Of a stretch of DNA of 64,000 nt, positions 7,258-52,499 are shown in pieces (positions within the stretch are counted from its first letter, which is position 1; each line of letters opens with the position of its first letter). The position numbers and the translations under genes are program-made. This DNA is from Candidatus Pacearchaeota archaeon (GTDB lineage Archaea > Nanobdellota > Nanobdellia > Pacearchaeales > UBA284): the NCBI GenBank assembly GCA_026016245.1, contig CP061211.1:29449-93448 (forward strand), written 5' to 3'. Under the pieces are notes generated by a model. The model ran no database searches, had not been told where the DNA came from, and worked only from the letters and a program-made list of their open reading frames with translations.

Positions 7258-8052
7258 ATGATACTAAGAAATATGGATAGAGATAAAAGAGGACAGGTAA
7301 CTCTTTTTATTATAATTGCTATTGTTATTGTGGCTGTTGTGATTCTAGCTATTGTTCTTGTCCCACAACTTCTTCCTAGAGAAAGAATTCCCCCAACAGT
7401 ACTTGATCCAGAAGCTTATATTGCTGATTGCGTTAACTTACATTTAGAACCATTAGTTGAGGTACTTGCAAGTCAAGGAGGCTATTTGGAAACAGGAAAT
7501 TGTATTTTTTATGAAGATATCTGCAGGCATTATTTATGTTATACTACTACTCCTTATATTAATTGCACTAATCAAGAACCTTTACTTAAAGAGCATGTTG
7601 AAGAAGAATTAAAAACTAAGCTGCAACAAGAAAATGTGGTTAAAAATTGTATTTCTAGTTTTGCTGAAGCTGCAAGAAAACAGAATTGGAATGTTGAAGC
7701 ATGCTCTGTTCCAAAATTTTCAGTTAATTTGACAGAAGGCAGGATTAATATCCCTATAGAGTGTGATATAACAATGTCTAAAGGACAGGAAGTTAAAAAA
7801 TTTGAAGAACTTAATCCTTTTTTAAAATGGCCTTTGTTTGAATTTGTTATACTTAGTAAAGAAATTATTAATGAAGAAATAGAAAATTGTGATTTTGATC
7901 CCTTAGCTTATATGACTATGCATTATCAGATTGAGATTGAGAAATTTAGAACAGGCGATGGAAGTAAGATTTATATACTTCGGGAAAGAGAAACTGGAAA
8001 AGAATTTGTATTTGCTGTAAGAAATTGTGTGTTACCAGGAGGGGTATTTTAG
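7258..8052 (+). CDS. Small membrane-anchored, Cys-containing hypothetical protein
   Basis: N-terminal TM helix LFIIIAIVIVAVVILAIVLV. No recognisable catalytic motif. Confidence 0.4.
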   Translation: MILRNMDRDKRGQVTLFIIIAIVIVAVVILAIVLVPQLLPRERIPPTVLDPEAYIADCVNLHLEPLVEVLASQGGYLETGNCIFYEDICRHYLCYTTTPYINCTNQEPLLKEHVEEELKTKLQQENVVKNCISSFAEAARKQNWNVEACSVPKFSVNLTEGRINIPIECDITMSKGQEVKKFEELNPFLKWPLFEFVILSKEIINEEIENCDFDPLAYMTMHYQIEIEKFRTGDGSKIYILRERETGKEFVFAVRNCVLPGGVF

Positions 8053-8053
8053 A

Positions 8054-11000
8054 ATGCCAAACAGGAAAAACAAAGGTGATATGGCAATAGCATTATTCCT
8101 TTCATTTTTGGCAGTAATGATGCCAGTGACCTTTACATCATTACAACCAGAATTTACAGAAGAAGGAATAAAACAAAATTCTATCATTGAAACTTTCTCA
8201 GAAATAGTCTTATTTTTTGATCTAATTCCAAGTGTAGCTGCTTCTGATTATTTTGGATGCTGTGAAGAAACAAAAAATAAAGCTAAATGTGTTATAACTC
8301 TTGAGAATGAATGTAAGGTTAATAAATGGCATAATGGAACAGCTTGTGATACTGTATGCCAGATAGGTTGTTGTATAGATAATGAAGGAATGTGTATTAA
8401 AAATTCTATAAATACAGATTGTCAACTTGGAACTTTTATTGTTAAGGATCCAAGTTGTGAACAGAGTCCTTTATGCAAGGAAGGTTGTTGTACAATTGGT
8501 TATCAAAAAAGATGGACAACAAATTTAACTTGTGTTAATGTTTATAATGGTGTTTGGGATAGTGCTGTTCCTGATTGGTTGACTTGTATTAAACAAGCTT
8601 ATGAAGAACAGCATGGATGTTGTAAAAGTTATGCTGGTTGTGAGTATATTACAGGACAAGAATGCCAGGGCAAATCAGGATATTTTTTCTCAAATATGAA
8701 GTGCTATGAGAATATTCCTGGCTGCGAGATTTGTCAATTACAGCCTACTGAAGGAAAATGTATAGAAGGTTTTCCTGATTTATACAAGACAGATAGTTGT
8801 GGGAATGTTTATAGTGATGAAATTAAAAAATATTGTACTGGTGGTTTTTGTAATCCTGAGACAAATCAATGTGAATCTGGAGATTGTTTTAATATCTACA
8901 AAAATTATGTTGGTGGAGAATTTGGGCCTAAAGAATCTTCAGACAAAGCAAAAAGTGGTGAGGCTTGGTGTGTTTATGATACTCTTAGTGACTTAGGTAA
9001 TGGAACAGCACCTGTAGGTTCACGACACTGGAGACGTTATTGTTTATATGGGCAAGAATATAATGAGCCTTGTGCAGATTACAGACAAGAAGTTTGTATG
9101 GGTTTTGGAGAAGGAGGGCAAGCAGAATATGCCAACTGTGCTCCAAATGGATGGAGACTATGTGCTAATGTTACATCAAAAAATGAATGTAATGAGAATC
9201 CTTTCTGTTTCTGGTGGACAGATTTTGGTGAACAACATGAAGACCTAGGTCTTGGTAGCGGATTGAAAGATGCAATTGATAAAGTAGGTAATGATAAATG
9301 GCGTATTTTTGCTGAAGAAAAAATAGAATCTGGAAAAAGTAAAAGAGAGAAAGGAGACCCACAAATTTGTTTACCTAAAATACCTCCAGGCTATAGTGAA
9401 CTTAATCAAGAGCTTGGTTGTGTTGGAGCTGGAAGTTCTATGTGTGTTTATGAAGAAGCTTGGTGGGGTTTAGATACAGAAAATAAAGAATGTCGTGATG
9501 ATGAATGGCGTATTACATCTGCACACACATGTAGAAGTGTAGGAGATTGTGGAACTTGGTTTAATTGGGTTGGAGAGCCTATGTCTGGTTTTAGGATCAT
9601 AGAAGTTGAAGAAGGAGATGTAGAAAGAGAGAAAAAAGAAATAATGATACCACAAGCATATACTGATTTTGTTTCAGAACATATTAAAGGAGTAAAGGGA
9701 GCTGGTGGCTTAGGCCTCTTGAATATTTTTGCAGCTGCTTTTGTAGTTTGGGCTGGAGGTTATTTAGGAGTTGCAGTTTTAGATCTAGTTGGTGTAGACG
9801 TTTTTTTCAGTGGTGTACCTTGGGCAATGTTTAGTGTCAGTAAAGGATCATTAACTACAGCAGGTATAGTGGTTGGATGGTCTATTATAGCTACTGGAGT
9901 GATCTTAATTTTATGGTCTTTTTGGATTTCACCAGGAGCAAAACAAGGAGCAATGCAATCAATTGGTGCTGGCCTTATTTCAGGAGGTGCTGCTGCTTTA
10001 GCAGGATTAACTGCTGTTCCTGCTGTACTTGTTGGCATTGTAATTGCTGGAATTGCTGCTCTTTTATACTGGTTAGGTTATAGTAAGGAATTTTATTATC
10101 AACAATGTAATCCTTCAATGCCTCCTCTTAATGGAAATGACTGTCATCTTTGTAATGAAGATTCTGAAAGGCCTTGTTCTAAGTATAGATGTGAGAGTCT
10201 AGGAGCTGCCTGTTCATATAATGATACTATAACTGTTGGTGGTAAAACATACCAGCTTGCAGATTCTGAATGTATAGCAACAATAAATGATGGTGCTCCT
10301 CCTTGGATTACTGAAATAGAGGCTTTTGACATGGAAGGAAGGAGTATCTTCAAAAGAACAGGATTAGGAACAATGCCTACAACCATCAATATTAATATGG
10401 GCGGCCAACCTATTCCTGATGGCACGCAACTTGTAATACAAATAAACTTGAATGAAAAAGCATTTTGTATGTGGGATATTGAAAGCACAGCCAACATTGG
10501 AGAGATGGACTTCCCTTATCAAAGTTCTGTATTGCGGGATGAGCTAAGACAGCAATTCCTAGTGAAACAGGCTCTGCCACAATATTATGTAAGATGTGCT
10601 GATGTTTATGGCAATGCGAACATTGCAGAATACATTTTCAAATTTTCAACTACAACAGGACCAGATTTAACACCACCAGTTATTTTAGGTACAGATAGAG
10701 ATTATAATCCTTATTTTGGATATAGTGTTACTGAGCTTCCTTTATCTATTTATATTAGTGAAGATGCTTTTTGTCGTTGGAACCCAGGACAGGACACTGA
10801 TTATGAATTAATGTCACAAGAAACAGAATGTGAAACAGATATCACACCGACTGGATGGGAATGTGAAACAACCCTCACTGGCTTGCAGCCAGATATTGCA
10901 AATCCTTTCTATATAAGATGTAAAGACAAAAGTCCTCAAGAAAATGTTATGCCTAGCGGTTACCTTCTTACATTACTTCCTACACCGCCTTTATTAATCA

Positions 11001-11557
11001 CTTCAATTGATCCAACAGATGGTTCTATAATTAAAGGATGCGAAGTTTCTGGTGTAGAACTTGAAGTTACAACTGCTGAAGGAGCAGATAATGGAATAGC
11101 TACTTGTTATTGGTCTAATGCTGATATTGGCATTGAACAAGGAATGACTAAATTTACTGAAACTAATACTGTTATTCATAGACAGAACCTTTCTGCTATG
11201 AGCCAGATTGTTTACATCAAATGTCATGATTCTGCTTTAAATATAGCAAATAATAGGACAAGCTTTACTGTAATTGTTGATACTTTCCCACCAAAAATAA
11301 CTCGTCTTTACAAATCTGGTGGAAGTCTTATTTTAAAGACAGATGAGAATGCTGTTTGTGCATATCACTATAGTGCTGGCAGAAAAATACATAATTGTAA
11401 TTTTGATCCTAAGGATACTCTCAGAGCAAGAAGGTTTGATACCACAGGAACTAAAGAACATAGAGTTTATGATGATGGAGAGCCTTGGCATGTAATATGT
11501 TATGATGAGTGTGATAATATTGGACAGTGTTTCGTAATATCTTCAATAGAATCTTAA
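8054..11557 (+). CDS. Giant Cys-rich surface protein with a central multi-TM block
   Basis: Start moved to MPNRKNKG (ATG 8054), which has a GGAGGGG SD 8 nt upstream and follows the upstream TAG stop. The N-terminal 500 aa are Cys-rich. Four to six hydrophobic helices span aa 540-680. A large C-terminal domain follows. Confidence 0.5.
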   Translation: MPNRKNKGDMAIALFLSFLAVMMPVTFTSLQPEFTEEGIKQNSIIETFSEIVLFFDLIPSVAASDYFGCCEETKNKAKCVITLENECKVNKWHNGTACDTVCQIGCCIDNEGMCIKNSINTDCQLGTFIVKDPSCEQSPLCKEGCCTIGYQKRWTTNLTCVNVYNGVWDSAVPDWLTCIKQAYEEQHGCCKSYAGCEYITGQECQGKSGYFFSNMKCYENIPGCEICQLQPTEGKCIEGFPDLYKTDSCGNVYSDEIKKYCTGGFCNPETNQCESGDCFNIYKNYVGGEFGPKESSDKAKSGEAWCVYDTLSDLGNGTAPVGSRHWRRYCLYGQEYNEPCADYRQEVCMGFGEGGQAEYANCAPNGWRLCANVTSKNECNENPFCFWWTDFGEQHEDLGLGSGLKDAIDKVGNDKWRIFAEEKIESGKSKREKGDPQICLPKIPPGYSELNQELGCVGAGSSMCVYEEAWWGLDTENKECRDDEWRITSAHTCRSVGDCGTWFNWVGEPMSGFRIIEVEEGDVEREKKEIMIPQAYTDFVSEHIKGVKGAGGLGLLNIFAAAFVVWAGGYLGVAVLDLVGVDVFFSGVPWAMFSVSKGSLTTAGIVVGWSIIATGVILILWSFWISPGAKQGAMQSIGAGLISGGAAALAGLTAVPAVLVGIVIAGIAALLYWLGYSKEFYYQQCNPSMPPLNGNDCHLCNEDSERPCSKYRCESLGAACSYNDTITVGGKTYQLADSECIATINDGAPPWITEIEAFDMEGRSIFKRTGLGTMPTTININMGGQPIPDGTQLVIQINLNEKAFCMWDIESTANIGEMDFPYQSSVLRDELRQQFLVKQALPQYYVRCADVYGNANIAEYIFKFSTTTGPDLTPPVILGTDRDYNPYFGYSVTELPLSIYISEDAFCRWNPGQDTDYELMSQETECETDITPTGWECETTLTGLQPDIANPFYIRCKDKSPQENVMPSGYLLTLLPTPPLLITSIDPTDGSIIKGCEVSGVELEVTTAEGADNGIATCYWSNADIGIEQGMTKFTETNTVIHRQNLSAMSQIVYIKCHDSALNIANNRTSFTVIVDTFPPKITRLYKSGGSLILKTDENAVCAYHYSAGRKIHNCNFDPKDTLRARRFDTTGTKEHRVYDDGEPWHVICYDECDNIGQCFVISSIES

Positions 11558-12452: not shown

Positions 12453-13094
12453 ATGCCAATAAAAATAATTAAGAATTTTTTCAAAAGAATATTTTATGGC
12501 ATGTTTGCTACTAAGAAACATGTTAAATTAGGTTTTTATGGGCCTCCTAATAGTGGTAAGACTACTCTTGCTAACAGACTTTGTAAGGATTGGTTAGGAG
12601 AAGAGCTTGGAAAAACAAGCAGAGTTCCTCATGAGACAAGAGAAATACAGATAAAGGAGAAAGTTGAGATAGATTTTAATGGAAAAAAGTTGACTTTTAA
12701 GCTAGTTGATACTCCTGGTATTGCCACAAGAATAGATTATGAGGATTTCTTGCATTATGGCATGAAGGTTAGAGAGGCTAAGAAAAGAGCTAAAGAAGCT
12801 ACAAGAGGTGTTATCGAGGCTATAAAATGGTTAGATGACATGGATGCTGTCATTATTGTTCTTGATACAACTAAAAATCCTTACACCCAGGTTAATATTA
12901 CTATCATAGGAAATCTTGTTGCAAGGAAAATTCCTGTGCTTATAGTAGCTAACAAGATAGATTTGAGAGGAGCAAGAGGAAAGATAAAAAAGATAGAGGC
13001 TGCATTCCCAGAATATGATGTTGTTGCTATAAGTGCAAAAAAAGGCAAAAACATGGAAGAGTTTTATGAGAATCTCTTTGCTCTTGTAAAATAA
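12453..13094 (+). CDS. Small P-loop GTPase
   Basis: G1 motif GPPNSGKTT, G3 motif DTPG and G4 motif ANKID, all in canonical order. Confidence 0.75.
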   Translation: MPIKIIKNFFKRIFYGMFATKKHVKLGFYGPPNSGKTTLANRLCKDWLGEELGKTSRVPHETREIQIKEKVEIDFNGKKLTFKLVDTPGIATRIDYEDFLHYGMKVREAKKRAKEATRGVIEAIKWLDDMDAVIIVLDTTKNPYTQVNITIIGNLVARKIPVLIVANKIDLRGARGKIKKIEAAFPEYDVVAISAKKGKNMEEFYENLFALVK

Positions 13095-13104
13095 GAAGAA
13101 AAAA

Positions 13105-13521
13105 ATGGCAAAGAAAAAAATAAAAACAAGGAGAAGCGATAAAGGGATAACAATACAATTCATCCCATATTCAGAAATAGCTTATCTCACTAGCTTTAGA
13201 CGTGTGAAGAAGTTAGTTGATTTAGCTGTCGAGAACAAGATTTTGCTTGTTCAGGGAAAGCTTGCTCCTGAAGAGGAAGTTGACTTGATTGAGGAAACAA
13301 TGAAACATATAGTTAAGAGTAAAAAATCAAAGTTTAGAGGAATTGAGTTAGCTACATTCTCACCGAGATCAAAAGAATTACCTTTTTTTACTTCAATGAA
13401 AGAGAAACTTGCAACAAGTTTATTTGGTGATAGAGATGTTATCACAGTTATTGGTCCTGCTACAATTGTCCGTGAAATTAAAAAAGATCCCACTAAGATA
13501 CAACTCCTTTTAAGGAAATAA
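13105..13521 (+). CDS. Conserved archaeal small protein, DUF2073-like (from recollection, unverified). GTPase partner.
   Basis: It sits between the GTPase and the Zn-ribbon gene, separated by 10-20 nt, matching a gene triad recalled from other archaea. Confidence 0.35.
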   Translation: MAKKKIKTRRSDKGITIQFIPYSEIAYLTSFRRVKKLVDLAVENKILLVQGKLAPEEEVDLIEETMKHIVKSKKSKFRGIELATFSPRSKELPFFTSMKEKLATSLFGDRDVITVIGPATIVREIKKDPTKIQLLLRK

Positions 13522-13539
13522 TAAAAATAATAATTAAAA

Positions 13540-13971
13540 ATGCCTCATCAATGTGTTCGCTGCGGAAGAATCTATGATAGTGCTGCTCCTGAAGTTCTAG
13601 AAGGCTGTTCTTGCGGTTCTCATTACTTTTTCTTCTTTAAGGATGAAGACTTGGCTATGCAAAAGGAAACTGAAAAGCTTACTAGAGATGAAAGAGAAGA
13701 GATTGTCAAGGATGTTAGTGAAATAGTCGGGCCAGATATAGAGAAGCCAATAATCCTTGATTTAGAAAGTATCAGAGTACAGAAACCAGGAAAGTTTGAG
13801 ATTGATTTGGTTAGAATCTTCAAGAGAAAACCTATTATATACAAGATAGAGGAAGGAAAGTATATCATAGATCTTGCATCAACTTTCCAGATGAAATTAA
13901 AGGAGAAAAAGATTGAAAAGTTAAAAAAGGTTGAAGTTCCAGAACCTAAAGAATCTAAAGAAGAGGATTAA
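13540..13971 (+). CDS. Zn-ribbon protein (DUF2072-like)
   Basis: N-terminal C-x2-C...C-x-C ribbon (QCVRCGRIYD...GCSCGSH) followed by a charged tail. Confidence 0.45.
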   Translation: MPHQCVRCGRIYDSAAPEVLEGCSCGSHYFFFFKDEDLAMQKETEKLTRDEREEIVKDVSEIVGPDIEKPIILDLESIRVQKPGKFEIDLVRIFKRKPIIYKIEEGKYIIDLASTFQMKLKEKKIEKLKKVEVPEPKESKEED

Positions 13972-42564: not shown

Positions 42565-42837
42565 TTAAGTACATCTTTTCCTATGTACATTCAAATATCT
42601 CCTCAAGAAATAATTCACAAAGCCATCTTCATCTTTTTGTAATGCTTTATAATATGCTCGCCTTTTAGCATACTTAATGATTAACATTGGATAATTATTA
42701 TACCACAAAATATGATTCATGATCAATCGACCAATCCTTCCATTCCCATCCCCAAATGGATGGATTTTCTCAAATTTGTAATGAGCTCTGGCAGCTAGCT
42801 CTACAGGATTCTTGTGGCAAGCTATTACACCAAGCAT
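42565..42837 (-). pseudogene. Fic/Doc-family gene remnant
   Basis: The Fic motif HPFGDGNGR is 26 aa from the ORF start. Upstream, 37 codons stay open and then hit an in-frame TAA at 42847-42849. The N-terminal roughly 100 aa of a Fic core are missing. The divergent neighbour starts at 42958. Confidence 0.55.
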
Positions 42838-42957: not shown

Positions 42958-43863
42958 ATGTCAAAAAAATCATACAAATCCAAAAAATATTATAAGCAAT
43001 TAGTTGAGGAAGCAGGTATCGCTATTTTAATTGATGACGAAAAAGGGAATTTCAGATTTGGTAATAAAAAATTTGCAGAGCTTTTTGGTTATTCTACAGG
43101 AGGGATATTAAAAAAATCAATAAAAGATATTGTTCATCCTGATGATGTTGAAAGAGTTATGGAAATCCACAGAACAAGAGTTAGAGGAGAAAAAGTTCCT
43201 TCAAATTATGAATTTAAAGGTATAACAAAAGATAAAAAACCTATATGGTTAGAAATACACGCTGAACAGTTAAGAGAGAAAGACAAGATAGTAGGAACTC
43301 GTTCTTTTATCTGGGAAATTACTGATCGTAAGAAAAAAGAAGAGTATATGGTTTATTTAGCTTATCATGATGTTCTTACAGGCTTGGCTAATAGGTGGTT
43401 GTTGTATGATAAGTTTGATTCAGAGTTAACTCATATAAGCCGTCACAATCTTAAAGATATTTTAATGTCTGTAATGTATCTTGATTTGGATTATTTTAAG
43501 GATATTAATGATAATTTAGGACATAACACTGGGGATATGTTATTAAGGGATGCAGCAAGAAAATTAGAAAAATGTGTTAGAAAGGGCGATACTTTAGCTC
43601 GTCTTGGAGGAGATGAGTTTTTAATTCTATATACTAATGTTACAAAAAAAGAAGATATTAAATTTTTAGCAGATAAAGTCTATGAAGTTTTTCAAAAACC
43701 ATTTAATATTAGTAATAAAAAAATAAACATGACTACTAGCATGGGTATTTCAGTATATCCTAATGATAGTGAAGAGATAGAACAGTTAATTGATAATGCT
43801 GATAAAGCACTTTATGTCGCTAAAAGGAAAGGAAGAAATAGGTATGAATTTTTCAGCCAATAA
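42958..43863 (+). CDS. PAS-GGDEF protein, a putative diguanylate cyclase
   Basis: N-terminal PAS-like fold. GGDEF active site in RLGGDEFLILY. RYEF near the C-terminus. Confidence 0.7.
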   Translation: MSKKSYKSKKYYKQLVEEAGIAILIDDEKGNFRFGNKKFAELFGYSTGGILKKSIKDIVHPDDVERVMEIHRTRVRGEKVPSNYEFKGITKDKKPIWLEIHAEQLREKDKIVGTRSFIWEITDRKKKEEYMVYLAYHDVLTGLANRWLLYDKFDSELTHISRHNLKDILMSVMYLDLDYFKDINDNLGHNTGDMLLRDAARKLEKCVRKGDTLARLGGDEFLILYTNVTKKEDIKFLADKVYEVFQKPFNISNKKINMTTSMGISVYPNDSEEIEQLIDNADKALYVAKRKGRNRYEFFSQ

Positions 43864-43896: not shown

Positions 43897-44265
43897 ATGT
43901 CAAAAAGTATTTTGATTGTTGAAGATGAAGGAATCGTAGCAATGGATATAAAAAGAACTTTGCAAGGTTTTGGATACTCAGTTATTGGTATTGTGCCTTC
44001 TGGGGAAGAAGCTATTGAAAAAGTAAAAAATGCTTGTCTTGATTTAATACTTATGAATATATCATTAAGAGGAAATATGGATGGTATTGAAGCTGTTGAA
44101 AAAATACATGAGAATTCTGATATTCCTATTATTTACATTACAGGACACTTTAATGACGAGCTTTATGAGCGAGCAAAAAAGACAAAACATTTTAGATATT
44201 TAAAAAAACCATTGAATACAGAAGAGTTACAAAAAACCATAGAAGCAGCATTCTGCAAAAAATAA
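43897..44265 (+). CDS. Stand-alone response-regulator receiver (REC) domain
   Basis: ILIVEDEG...DLILMNISLRGNMDG carries the phospho-acceptor Asp context. K at the expected position. Confidence 0.7.
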   Translation: MSKSILIVEDEGIVAMDIKRTLQGFGYSVIGIVPSGEEAIEKVKNACLDLILMNISLRGNMDGIEAVEKIHENSDIPIIYITGHFNDELYERAKKTKHFRYLKKPLNTEELQKTIEAAFCKK

Positions 44266-44302: not shown

Positions 44303-44455
44303 TTACTTCTTTTTCTTCTTCTTTTTGGCCTTCTTTTTTTTCTTTTTTCTTCCACCACGAGCCATTTTTGCTTCACAGACATTACCTTTTCCGTCGATGT
44401 AGTATAAGTATCCTTTCTTTCTTTTTACTGCGCCTTTAACAAGAACTTTTCCCAT
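44303..44455 (-). CDS. Unannotated 50-aa basic protein, below the ORF-track length cutoff
   Basis: Translation MGKVLVKGAVKRKKGYLYYIDGKGNVCEAKMARGGRKKKKKKAKKKKKKK. Strong SD AGGAGGT at 44466-44472, 10 nt from the ATG. Confidence 0.5.
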   Translation of the reverse strand: MGKVLVKGAVKRKKGYLYYIDGKGNVCEAKMARGGRKKKKKKAKKKKKKK

Positions 44456-44537
44456 TTTTTATTTAACCTCCTTTTGATTTAAATTGACCTTAGCCATTTA
44501 ATTAATAATTTAAGGCAGAACTATTATTTAAATCTTT

Positions 44538-44921
44538 CTATTCTCCGTCGATAGATTTTTTGTATCTGCTGAATAGTCTCTTTATTCTTGCTTTTGTTAT
44601 GACATTATGGTGCCTGAAACCGCCGCCAAAGCTCTTCGGTATATGCAACAATTCATGAATCAAGGTTTTAAGCTTCTCTTCCTCGCTTTGTTTATCAAAA
44701 TTTTTACTTATCACTTCTATTATATAAGCTGGTTCTGCCCCGAGAGAGAGCTGCATCACCTTCGGTAATGAATGGCATCGAGCTATTATTCCTCTAGATT
44801 TTGAACCATGACTTCTCAAACAAAATATTCTGTCTTTGTTAAGATGCCCCATATCTAAAATATTAATTATCAAATCTATTTTTCTCTTGATATCTGGAGC
44901 ATCTTCATATTTTATTCTCAT
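44538..44921 (-). CDS. Minimal HExxH zinc metalloprotease-like protein, WLM/DUF45-like
   Basis: LIHELLHIPKSFGGGFRHHN. Length 127 aa. Confidence 0.45.
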   Translation of the reverse strand: MRIKYEDAPDIKRKIDLIINILDMGHLNKDRIFCLRSHGSKSRGIIARCHSLPKVMQLSLGAEPAYIIEVISKNFDKQSEEEKLKTLIHELLHIPKSFGGGFRHHNVITKARIKRLFSRYKKSIDGE

Positions 44922-45799
44922 TTTTTGAATTTTACCCTTATCTTACTATCTCTTATAGTAATCATAGCATATTTACCATACTTGGCTGCTCCTGGATTTA
45001 TGATAAGGGTTTTTCCTATTTTATCTTGTCCTTGGTTTTCATGCATGTGACCAGCCACACACAATAAAGGTTTATGCTTTTCTATTATTTTACGAGTAAG
45101 ATAAGAACCATAATGTTTTCCTTTAGCTAATTTATGTGCTCCTTTTGCCCTTATTAAATCAAGTTTTGTTTTGTATGGAACATTATGAGAAATAAAAATA
45201 AAATTTTTCCTATCTATTTTTTTTATTTCTTTCTCTATTCTCTTTTTTTGATTTCTATAATCTTTCAATCTTAATCTTAATTTATCTTTCATTCTAGGTT
45301 TAATACCATAATAAGAACTTCTTGGATAACCCACAAAATAAAGATTTTCAAAATTTACTAACTTATAGTCAGCAACTTTTATTTTATGCTTTTTAAGAAG
45401 AGGAGTAATTAAATCTTTTTTGTGCAATCTTCTTCTACGGGGGCTGGAAATTTCACCTATATCTCTATAAGTAGTTAGGTCTATATTTCCTGTGACTGAT
45501 ATTGCTGGTATATTTAAATTACCTATATAAACAATAACTTTCTTCCCATCTCTTAAATTTTTTTTTGTGAATTCTTTTTGTTTTTTCTTTCCTATTACTT
45601 GCCATAATGGTTTGTCTGTCCCATAAGAATATTTGAAAATAAGTTTTCTTTCATAAAGAGGACAGAAATCTCCCGGACTTATGATTAAATCTGGTTTTTC
45701 TTTTTTGATTACTTTTTTTATGAAATAAGGGATTTTTCCATGAAAGTCGCCAATTGCTAAGATCTTTATCTCTTTCATTTTGGTAAGTTTCTTGCCCAT
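44918..45799 (-). CDS. Calcineurin-like metallophosphoesterase
   Basis: GDFHG, PGDF, GN.D and GHMHE motifs in order. Confidence 0.7.
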   Translation of the reverse strand: MGKKLTKMKEIKILAIGDFHGKIPYFIKKVIKKEKPDLIISPGDFCPLYERKLIFKYSYGTDKPLWQVIGKKKQKEFTKKNLRDGKKVIVYIGNLNIPAISVTGNIDLTTYRDIGEISSPRRRRLHKKDLITPLLKKHKIKVADYKLVNFENLYFVGYPRSSYYGIKPRMKDKLRLRLKDYRNQKKRIEKEIKKIDRKNFIFISHNVPYKTKLDLIRAKGAHKLAKGKHYGSYLTRKIIEKHKPLLCVAGHMHENQGQDKIGKTLIINPGAAKYGKYAMITIRDSKIRVKFKK

Positions 45800-46653
45800 C
45801 TGTTGAGATTTTTTATTACTTTTTCTGGTGTTAATGATTCAAGTTTTTTAACAAGAGTTTTGTCTTGCAACATTTTTTCATTGAGTGGAACTGAGATGCC
45901 ATCCACTTCTTTTGGACTTTTCATATGCAGACTAAAAGGACATCTTGCTAGTTTTCCACTTGGTGTCTGGCTTGGATCTATTATTATTGTATTAAAAGTT
46001 TTTTCATGTCCCCCTTTTACTTTTATTTTTGTTTCTTTGCTGATTTTTTGAGCCCATCTTCCTGTGAAACTTTCCAAAGGCTTATCTTTTTTACAACTTA
46101 TGTATTTTTGATAGAAACTTTGTGGCACAGCCTTGTTTAGCATTAAATAGAGATGAAAACTCTTGCCTGTCCACATCAAGAAAGTTTTGAACTTGATTAA
46201 TTTTTTAAATTCTTTATCACTCCTTATTGTTTTTATTAAAGCTATGATAACTTGTTGGGTTTGCTGCGCTGTTGTTCCTTTTCCTCTATCAATATCAAAG
46301 AAAATTCTGTCTATTGGCTTGCCTTTTCCTTCCCTGTTGGTGGCATAGAAAAAATCTATTAGTTTGGCTTGAGGAAAATATCCCCATATCTTATCTTGCT
46401 GTTTTGTTATCTTGTCTCTTGCTCTTTTTAGATTAGTCTTACTTCTTAATTCTAAGAGTTTATTATCCACAACACTGAATTCTTCAATGTATAAAGGTTG
46501 GGCTTTGGAGCCTCTTTTTATGAAAAAACCAAAAGGAAGCCATACTTTTGATGCAATTTCCTTGTTTTTCAGAAAATTTTTTAGTTTATTTGCGATAGCA
46601 CTATAGTATGAAAGAACGTCAGTCTTGCCAAAAGGTTTGAGTATATCTTGCAT
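45775..46653 (-). CDS. Archaeo-eukaryotic primase (AEP) superfamily protein, resembling the DNA primase small subunit PriS
   Basis: Motif I FFDIDRG (D-x-D). Motif II WTGKSFHLY (sGxxGxH). Motif III IIDPSQT..KLARCPFSLHMKS. Confidence 0.5.
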   Translation of the reverse strand: MQDILKPFGKTDVLSYYSAIANKLKNFLKNKEIASKVWLPFGFFIKRGSKAQPLYIEEFSVVDNKLLELRSKTNLKRARDKITKQQDKIWGYFPQAKLIDFFYATNREGKGKPIDRIFFDIDRGKGTTAQQTQQVIIALIKTIRSDKEFKKLIKFKTFLMWTGKSFHLYLMLNKAVPQSFYQKYISCKKDKPLESFTGRWAQKISKETKIKVKGGHEKTFNTIIIDPSQTPSGKLARCPFSLHMKSPKEVDGISVPLNEKMLQDKTLVKKLESLTPEKVIKNLNRWARNLPK

Positions 46654-46675
46654 GTTTGTAAAATGTAAGAAACAT

Positions 46676-46689
46676 TTATAAATATATAC
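46676..46689 (+). promoter_or_regulatory. Putative archaeal TATA box for the rps12-rps7-fusA operon
   Basis: tttataaatatata lies about 40 nt upstream of the rps12 ATG, with a GAGGGT SD in between. Confidence 0.35.
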
Positions 46690-46723
46690 GAAAATTAACT
46701 TATATCAGATTATAGAGGGTAAA

Positions 46724-52150: not shown

Positions 52151-52284
52151 GCTCCGGTAGCTCAGTGGCTAGAGCACACGGCTGTTACTACAGCTTTCTT
52201 TAGAAAAGAAAGCTCTAGGAGGTAAAGAAACTATTTTTGCCTGCAGAAACCGTGGGGTCGTAGGTTCGAATCCTATCCGGAGCG
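52151..52284 (+). tRNA. tRNA-Asn(GUU) with a 61-nt intron at the canonical 37/38 position
   Basis: Acceptor stem GCUCCGG/CCGGAGC. D arm GCUC...GAGC. Anticodon stem CACGG/CCGUG. Anticodon GTT at 52184-52186. Intron 52188-52248 has a GCTGT/ACAGC helix consistent with bulge-helix-bulge. T arm GTAGG-TTCGAAT-CCTAT. Confidence 0.75.
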
Positions 52285-52350: not shown

Positions 52351-52499
52351 GGGCCCGTAGCTCAGCCTGGTTTAGAGCACTACGCTGATAGCCTTACTAC
52401 AGCCTCTTAAAGGGGGTGATGGAACTGGAGCGCTTTGCGTTCCACTGTAGTTTGGTTCTAGAAACGTAGGGGTCATGGGTTCGAATCCCATCGGGCCCA
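52351..52499 (+). tRNA. tRNA-Ile(GAU) with a 73-nt intron at 37/38
   Basis: Acceptor stem GGGCCCG/CGGGCCC. Anticodon stem CUACG/CGUAG. Anticodon GAT at 52387-52389. Intron 52391-52463. T arm GGGTT... TTCGAAT. Confidence 0.75.

Follow-up and report, generated by a model that had tools for sequence, protein, structure and literature searches.

Three described systems come closest to the gene that is the subject of this study. The first is the polymerase domain (PolDom, or Prim-PolD) of Mycobacterium tuberculosis LigD (2IRU, 2R9L). The second is mycobacterial Prim-PolC/LigC, in which a PolDom-like protein from the archaeo-eukaryotic primase (AEP) superfamily, encoded with a ligase, works with base excision repair enzymes on short gaps (5OP0, 6SA0; PMC5663958). 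The third, an archaeal precedent for LigD functions carried by separate genes, is the Ku, polymerase (Pol), 3'-phosphoesterase (PE) and ligase (Lig) set of Methanocella paludicola (5DMU; PMC4797286). Among archaea, LigD-like repair has been attributed to 'very few species', M. paludicola being one example (PMC12019639). Here we analyse a stretch of 64,000 nucleotides ('the window') of contig CP061211.1 from a Candidatus Pacearchaeota archaeon, a DPANN member. It carries, all on the minus strand, the genes for a stand-alone AEP polymerase (45775..46653, 292 amino acids (aa)), a Metallophos_3 phosphoesterase (44918..45778, 286 aa from its likely start) and a minimal zincin peptidase of family PF18894 (44538..44921, 127 aa). 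We consider it highly probable that the AEP is a LigD-PolDom-like repair polymerase, which would fill gaps or extend ends before ligation.

The window has a G+C content of about 30% and contains archaeal markers, i.e. Kae1, the S12-S7-EF2 operon, aIF1A, aIF2-beta and intron-bearing tRNAs. GenBank holds the same AEP protein, without any difference, as UZE94024.1 (locus tag IB618_00400, on a 710,724-bp contig), under the product name 'hypothetical protein'. It gives a full-length match to the Pfam model LigD_Prim-Pol (PF21686) with 31.0 bits at a gathering threshold (GA) of 27.4, and in the Pfam search at E ≤ 1 there was no match to DNA_primase_S (PF01896). All LigD models of NCBIfam remain far below their cut-offs, with ligD_pol (TIGR02778) reaching 27 versus 214.7. 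An alignment of 42 AEP homologues revealed that D120, D122, H167 and D226 are invariant and that the block D226-P-S-Q-x-P-S-G-K...R237...H243 is kept, R237-x-P-x-S/L-x-H243 being invariant or nearly so. The original prediction, a first reading of the DNA letters, had recognised three AEP motifs in this protein. Two of them, D-x-D and D...RxPxSxH, are borne out by the alignment, but motif II reads WTGKSFH, i.e. sxH, and not sGxxGxH. To judge by the alignment, the active site is intact. No cysteine is conserved among the 42 homologues, the two cysteines of the window protein included, and the AEP is therefore predicted to be devoid of a zinc or Fe-S module.

The AlphaFold (AF2) model of the AEP has a pLDDT of 93.2 and a pTM of 0.89. 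When it was compared with the PDB using Foldseek, the top nine matches were all M. tuberculosis LigD PolDom structures (2iru/2iry/2r9l; E 3e-11 to 1e-9, template modelling (TM) score 0.56-0.62), aligned over the whole chain at 18-19% identity. They were followed by Prim-PolC, the Methanocella non-homologous end-joining polymerase, P. aeruginosa LigD-Pol and CAPP, while human and yeast PriS appeared only at E ≥ 1e-3 (TM 0.36-0.45). With the DxD, sxH and D motifs on a matching predicted fold, the protein is placed by the model within the AEP superfamily. It shares with LigD PolDom both this catalytic set and the R..H nucleotide-binding motif, and its relatives adjoin genes for a PE and an ATP-dependent ligase; unlike PolDom, however, it has no member in which Lig or PE is fused to it. 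The resemblance to Prim-PolC is weaker (E 2e-6, TM 0.45-0.5, compared with the values for PolDom). As in the mycobacterial system, members of the AEP family adjoin genes for a ligase, EndoIII, uracil-DNA glycosylase (UDG) and NUDIX proteins, but the ligase found in Methanobacterium is of the three-domain Lig1 type. As for the Methanocella set, PE-AEP and AEP-Lig operons do exist in the AEP family. The Methanocella Pol, on the other hand, reaches a TM score of only 0.5 at 12% identity and thus belongs to a different family, and Ku, for which no dedicated search was made, is not among the neighbour families listed for the AEP.

If the AEP were the housekeeping primase subunit PriS, as the original prediction had considered, a match to a PriS model would be expected. 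There is none, no cysteine is conserved, and the fold lies nearer to LigD PolDom, its best match, so that PriS can be ruled out. A search of the window with a DPANN primase as probe found no PriL-like gene, and neither the alignment nor the AF2 model contains a PriL-like, helix-bundle or zinc module within the 292 aa. In DPANN cluster 2, to which the Pacearchaeota belong, the replicative primase is a monomer of about 390-430 aa in which PriS and PriL are fused and which has an Fe-S domain (PMC7414124; PMC10250227; bioRxiv 10.64898/2026.06.17.729505). An example is encoded in an Aenigmarchaeota locus (L167, 6652-7953, minus strand): this protein of 433 aa matches both the PriS and the PriL Pfam models, and its alignment with the window AEP, near motif III, gets no better than E 0.01. 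The comparison rules out that the AEP is itself such a fused primase. Both belong to the same superfamily, occur in the same organisms and score at the border of PF21686, but the fused enzyme, typified by N. equitans NEQ395 (PMC10250227), has a PriL-like Fe-S domain that the shorter AEP does not share. A tblastn search with the L167 primase over 169 sequences (the fetched loci and the window) retrieved only L167 itself. Methanobacterium carries PriS/PriL, and the AEP family is present in complete Methanobacterium genomes. The AEP is therefore probably a second AEP beside the replicative primase; for the organism studied here, the co-occurrence is taken from the literature.

A HMMER search of 1.84 billion cluster representatives (clustered at 50%) returned 114 members of the AEP family, about 45 of them full length (270-355 aa). 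In none of them is the AEP fused to a PE, Lig, phosphoesterase or other domain, the longest member having 355 aa. No bacterial LigD is among the matches, and no PolDom was reached by the profile. Identity to the window protein ranges from 46 to 71% among the members, which stem from Pacearchaeota, Woesearchaeota, Nanoarchaeia, Aenigmarchaeota, Micrarchaeota, Iainarchaeota, Altiarchaeia and Hydrothermarchaeota, from one Methanocellales metagenome-assembled genome (about 50% identity) and from 13 species of Methanobacterium, with complete genomes and M. oryzae DSM 11106 (orthologue WP_429222060.1) among them. DPANN genomes reduced to about 0.7 Mb have kept the family, whereas most archaea lack it. 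Every source, RefSeq entries of cultured strains included, names the protein 'hypothetical protein'. The branching of a neighbour-joining tree is broadly that of the taxonomy. Judged by these matches, the proteins are a discrete, compact and so far unnamed archaeal family.

The gene neighbourhoods of 82 non-redundant AEP loci have no universal member, yet repair genes recur. A three-domain ATP-dependent DNA ligase gene is present in 13 Methanobacterium loci. In 12 of them it directly follows the AEP on its downstream side, overlapping it by 4 nt in five, and in the thirteenth it lies 4.1 kb downstream. A LigD_N 3'-phosphoesterase occurs in 10 loci; in four it is located immediately upstream on the same strand, and 4-nt overlaps are seen in L045 and L072. 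EndoIII-type glycosylase genes were found in six loci, all from Micrarchaeota, and UvrB in two from Altiarchaeia. NUDIX genes are present in seven loci, as the divergent immediate neighbour in four Pacearchaeota/Woesearchaeota loci. UDG is encoded in 14 loci, in Methanobacterium a few kb from the AEP-ligase pair. In five loci, the AEP/PE pair has as its neighbour a second and independent phosphoesterase of the Metallophos_3 type. When the Pfam families of 131 immediate neighbours were counted, Methanobacterium being represented by two loci to lower its weight, the ranking was PhageMetallopep (6), NUDIX (5), LigD_N (4), HhH-GPD (3), Metallophos (3), Nre (2) and DNA ligase (2), and translation-related genes are also among the top families. 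Thus, when the lineages are taken together, separate but coupled genes around the AEP appear to stand for the functions POL, PE and LIG of LigD. Since the fold is closest to PolDom and the neighbours elsewhere include ligase, LigD-PE, EndoIII, UvrB, NreA and NUDIX genes, we read the AEP as a repair polymerase.

Two of these neighbourhoods have further features. In Methanobacterium (L031-L056), within about 0-7 kb downstream of the AEP, the AEP-ligase pair is succeeded by DUF72, UDG and two to five tandem small ATP-cone open reading frames (ORFs). Another ligase-like gene, with a lower score, is found about 6 kb downstream, and genes for a glutaredoxin and a ferredoxin-thioredoxin-reductase-like protein lie upstream. 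In five Woesearchaeota/Nanoarchaeota loci (L016, L025, L061, L063, L079), a protein family without Pfam match ('c19', 128-152 aa) is encoded directly downstream of the AEP, with 4-nt overlaps and in the place taken elsewhere by the peptidase. It is not a divergent form of the peptidase, as the hhalign probability is 0.2% and there is no HExxH motif.

As a repair polymerase, the AEP would add a few nucleotides or ribonucleotides at a nick, a short gap or a broken end, using a two-metal site formed by D120, D122 and D226. A 3'-end-cleaning phosphoesterase would strip 3'-phosphates or surplus ribonucleotides, and an ATP-dependent ligase would then seal the strand. Elsewhere the partners would be the LigD-type PE and the Lig encoded beside the AEP; here, a translationally coupled calcineurin-type phosphoesterase stands there instead. 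That the phosphoesterase plays the 3'-end-cleaning role of a LigD-type PE in this lineage is a tentative suggestion, and we hold it to be doubtful. For the locus overall, we moderately favour a repair-type AEP in gap or end filling, with the phosphoesterase as a less certain end-cleaner. What the analysis shows are the identities and contexts of the genes, their conservation, the fold and the integrity of the active sites; all activities and the cooperation of the three proteins are what we infer.

Several observations weigh against this assignment of the AEP. The margin over the PF21686 threshold is only 3.6 bits, and the L167 primase also scores just above it on this model (28.2 bits). Therefore, borderline PF21686 scores cannot separate repair AEPs from the DPANN replicative primase. 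Sequence profiles of the AEP family reached no solved PolDom in the PDB. Ku is not among the 25 families common to at least two of the 131 AEP neighbours, in a census that involved no Ku-specific search, and no ligase or PE gene was found in the 64-kb window. Finally, the 46-71% identity that the family keeps from phylum to phylum is out of the ordinary for an accessory repair enzyme and could mean another, more central role.

The latter point also bears on the possibility that the AEP is a replication protein, serving as an alternative or auxiliary primase or in Okazaki-fragment or origin-related synthesis. Such a role would fit the high identity across phyla, with only 114 representatives at 50% clustering, and the retention in reduced DPANN genomes, as well as the replicative three-domain architecture of the ligase beside the AEP in Methanobacterium. 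LigD-type AEPs can also prime in vitro. However, the AEP has no PriL-like, helix-bundle or zinc module for initiation, its neighbours are repair genes and not replisome genes, and both DPANN archaea (PMC7414124) and Methanobacterium already possess dedicated primases. Moreover, since the family is absent from most archaea, it is not a part of the core replisome. Taken together, we regard a replication role as very unlikely and retain the repair polymerase.

A mobile-element replication module, another option of the original prediction, finds even less room. Here the AEP would be a plasmid or viral replicase or a defence Prim-Pol. Many AEPs and PF18894 'phage metallopeptidases' do ride on mobile elements, and the phosphoesterase gives generic matches to one PHROG family and one PADLOC candidate model. 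The AEP and the peptidase, in contrast, matched neither PHROG nor PADLOC models (no PHROG match at all for the peptidase), and no relatives of the AEP were found in IMG/VR, phage records or plasmid records. The G+C content around the locus resembles that elsewhere in the window, the S12-S7-EF2/Kae1 synteny is chromosomal and conserved, and the AEP tree is broadly taxonomic. We regard a mobile or defence module as extremely improbable.

The second gene product is a calcineurin-like phosphoesterase, as had been predicted. It scores 70.3 bits on Metallophos_3 (PF14582; cut-off 28.2) and 42 bits on PF00149, and its DxH, GD and GN motifs, H205 and GH251xH253 are invariant in the family alignment. 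By these features it is a member of Metallophos_3 with a predicted intact dinuclear metal site, and looks active. The original prediction had also pointed to the fold of Mre11/SbcD nucleases, but the protein is not an Mre11/SbcD orthologue: only generic Metallophos models match, and there is neither a capping or DNA-binding domain nor a Rad50/SbcC neighbour. The nearest solved relatives are aq_1956 of Aquifex (2YVT; E 5e-14 with the family profile) and TT1561 of Thermus (1UF3), two Metallophos_3 proteins of unknown function. They have the same calcineurin-like metal motifs, but only the C-terminal third of the window protein aligns with them by sequence, and a Lys/Arg-rich insert at about residues 150-200 distinguishes it from both.

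The normal context of this phosphoesterase (here [MPE], for metallophosphoesterase) is GatB-AspRS-[MPE]-GatC-GatA, with AspRS upstream in 29 of 79 loci, a setting that may reflect some connection with tRNA or translation. In the Nanoarchaeia loci (L086-L165), the order is GatB-AspRS-[MPE]-GatC-like (86 aa)-GatA, often followed by a gene of the metallo-beta-lactamase fold and FtsZ. Among closer relatives (45-52% identity), phosphoesterase-peptidase pairs with 4-nt overlaps are present in L169 and L170, and in L089 and on the P0265 contig one gene lies between the two.

The third gene encodes a 127-aa HExxH protein, which is in line with the original prediction. It matches PF18894 ('putative phage metallopeptidase') with 86.3 bits at a cut-off of 23.7. 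Its HELLH motif lies at positions 89-93, where H89, E90 and H93 are invariant; H105, the ARCH motif (47-50) and E69 are invariant as well, and H104 nearly so. The third metal ligand is probably His104 or His105, in a GGGFxHH motif. The AF2 model (pLDDT 92.8) has a minimal zincin fold. The predicted resemblance to SprT/WLM-type proteases proved weak and confined to the fold level: a Pfam search at E ≤ 1 gave no match to SprT-like or WLM models, and a profile of the peptidase reached no solved structure. The top Foldseek matches are SPRTN (6mdx; E 0.056, TM 0.45, 88 columns) and the minigluzincin selecase of M. jannaschii (4qhf; TM 0.5-0.6), and Ste24 and HtpX also match weakly. The probabilities for the SPRTN/SprT and minigluzincin group are 0.97-0.99 at TM scores of 0.45-0.6, and all share a minimal zincin with HExxH. 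However, the E values are only 0.06-0.2, GGGFxHH is not seen in these proteins, and the peptidase has no DNA-binding domain. The family is widespread in archaea, its matches including Heimdallarchaeia, Micrarchaeota and Aenigmarchaeota. No literature on function was found under PF18894, COG4900 or COG2129. The peptidase could serve in the removal of protein adducts or have an unrelated housekeeping role.

In Pacearchaeota and relatives, the three families meet in a syntenic slot by the S12-S7-EF2 operon, which ends with the peptidase and the small basic protein described below; Kae1 follows further on. Ahead of the peptidase, the slot may contain the AEP alone (L002, L006, L007 and others), the phosphoesterase alone or both, the last being seen only in this organism. 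L169 shows the second layout, in which the S12 operon is followed by the phosphoesterase-peptidase pair without an AEP. In 12 loci, which belong without exception to Pacearchaeota, Woesearchaeota and close relatives, the peptidase is encoded downstream of the AEP, and in four of them within 25 nt. By the S12 operon, it is the peptidase that anchors the syntenic slot, and the link of the AEP to both neighbours is a local arrangement of few relatives. As to whether the operon is conserved or patchy, a question left by the original prediction, the AEP-peptidase and phosphoesterase-peptidase pairs recur, but a conserved three-gene operon is rejected on the evidence of 82 AEP and 80 phosphoesterase loci.

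How much the arrangement means is a matter of weighing. It may be a chance juxtaposition, in which three unrelated genes came to share one unit of a compact genome, the AEP being a repair polymerase and the other two acting elsewhere, for instance in processes tied to the AspRS/GatCAB or AlaX settings. The usual AspRS/GatCAB setting argues for a housekeeping role of the phosphoesterase unrelated to the AEP, and among 80 metagenomic loci of its family none has it beside an AEP. In L167 and L168 the coupled partner of the peptidase is an AlaX-like gene, and in L166 the peptidase stands by itself. In L006 and L007, which hold the closest AEP relatives, no phosphoesterase separates AEP and peptidase, and the three genes stand together only in this organism among 82 AEP and 80 phosphoesterase loci. 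With longest-ORF starts, 11 of the 41 same-strand junctions in the window overlap, at a coding density of about 90%; since overlaps are so common, overlap alone is weak evidence of functional coupling. All of this counts against a joint role of the trio. It is opposed by the slot itself, which, depending on the genome, joins the peptidase to the AEP, to the phosphoesterase or to both, with tight coupling each time, and by the second Metallophos_3 type, which has come to adjoin AEP/PE independently in the five loci mentioned above. On this evidence, we rate mere juxtaposition as possible though unlikely.

Of the DNA-repair module first proposed, the part concerning the AEP stands, on account of its repair neighbours elsewhere. 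For the trio it is only a proposal, given the 80 phosphoesterase loci without an AEP and the other contexts of the peptidase. A more far-reaching model would be a Ku-less end-cleaning and gap-filling module, in which the metallophosphoesterase displaced the LigD PE and the zincin would clear protein adducts, with the AEP as the main gap-filler of DPANN archaea and some methanogens. We judge this model to be improbable, and keep to the overall reading of a repair-type AEP with the phosphoesterase as a less certain partner.

The three minus-strand ORFs are real genes. The searches returned 513 homologues of the AEP (E ≤ 1e-3), 2169 of the peptidase and 291 of the phosphoesterase, and exact copies of all three genes are present on an independent Logan contig. 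Their junctions had been described as overlaps of 25 and 4 nt. The larger value arose because the longest ORF had been taken, which starts the phosphoesterase at 45799 (293 aa). Its homologues begin with MKILAIGDFHG, and both these and the NCBI product (P0241, 286 aa) put the start at Met8, at 45778. Therefore, the first overlap is probably 4 nt and not 25 nt, so that the AEP/phosphoesterase and phosphoesterase/peptidase junctions would both be 4-nt ATGA overlaps. Upstream, the AEP is separated from the divergent S12-S7-EF2 operon by an intergenic region that we read from the DNA as 70 bp (46654..46723). It contains an A+T-rich element, tatatatttataaat, at 46674-46688, whose centre is some 28 nt upstream of the ATG of the AEP gene. 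This element may be a candidate TATA box for a leaderless AEP mRNA, bearing in mind that strings like it are frequent in DNA of 30% G+C.

The gene for a very basic protein of 50 aa (44306..44458, minus strand) follows 79 nt downstream of the peptidase, with GGAGG as its ribosome-binding site. In L001 it has been called as a gene, and near-identical small proteins (40-50 aa) are encoded in L002 (7384-7506) and L169 (6649-6777), downstream of the PF18894 peptidase every time. They share the sequence MGKVLVKGAVKRKxGYLYY[IV]DGKGNVCEAKMARGG, which is followed by a poly-Lys tail. Probably the gene and the peptidase belong to one transcription unit or syntenic block.

Some features of the window lie apart from this locus. 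The genes for a small GTPase (12453-13094), OapB (PF09846; 13105-13521) and OapC (PF09845; 13540-13971) form a group on the plus strand (12453-13971). Since this is a set of 'origin-associated proteins', a replication origin may be nearby. A plus-strand gene at 42958-43863 encodes a PAS-GGDEF protein with an intact GGDEF motif and is followed by one for a stand-alone receiver domain (43897-44265, plus strand). Diguanylate cyclases are rare in archaea; the gene could represent a bacterial acquisition or c-di-GMP signalling in a DPANN archaeon. Two tRNA genes of 134 and 149 nt (52151-52284 and 52351-52499, plus strand), presumably intron-bearing, are found by Rfam and missed by ARAGORN. In addition, there is a 1176-aa ORF without Pfam match (8027-11557, plus strand) and a 90-aa fragment that retains only the core of a Fic domain and is maybe a remnant (42565-42837, minus strand).

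The three-gene operon itself, as a local arrangement, is of modest interest. What is new is an unannotated and broadly distributed family of PolDom-like AEPs in archaea, repeatedly encoded with PE, ligase and excision-repair genes. Direct tests are possible, for instance with the cultured M. oryzae DSM 11106 or with Methanobacterium sp. ACI-7, likewise in culture. If the AEP is a repair polymerase, it would help to explain how nicks, gaps and breaks are mended in genomes of 0.7 Mb with few DNA polymerases. If the family is the main gap-filling repair polymerase, LigD-like repair would be far wider in archaea than has been stated (PMC12019639).

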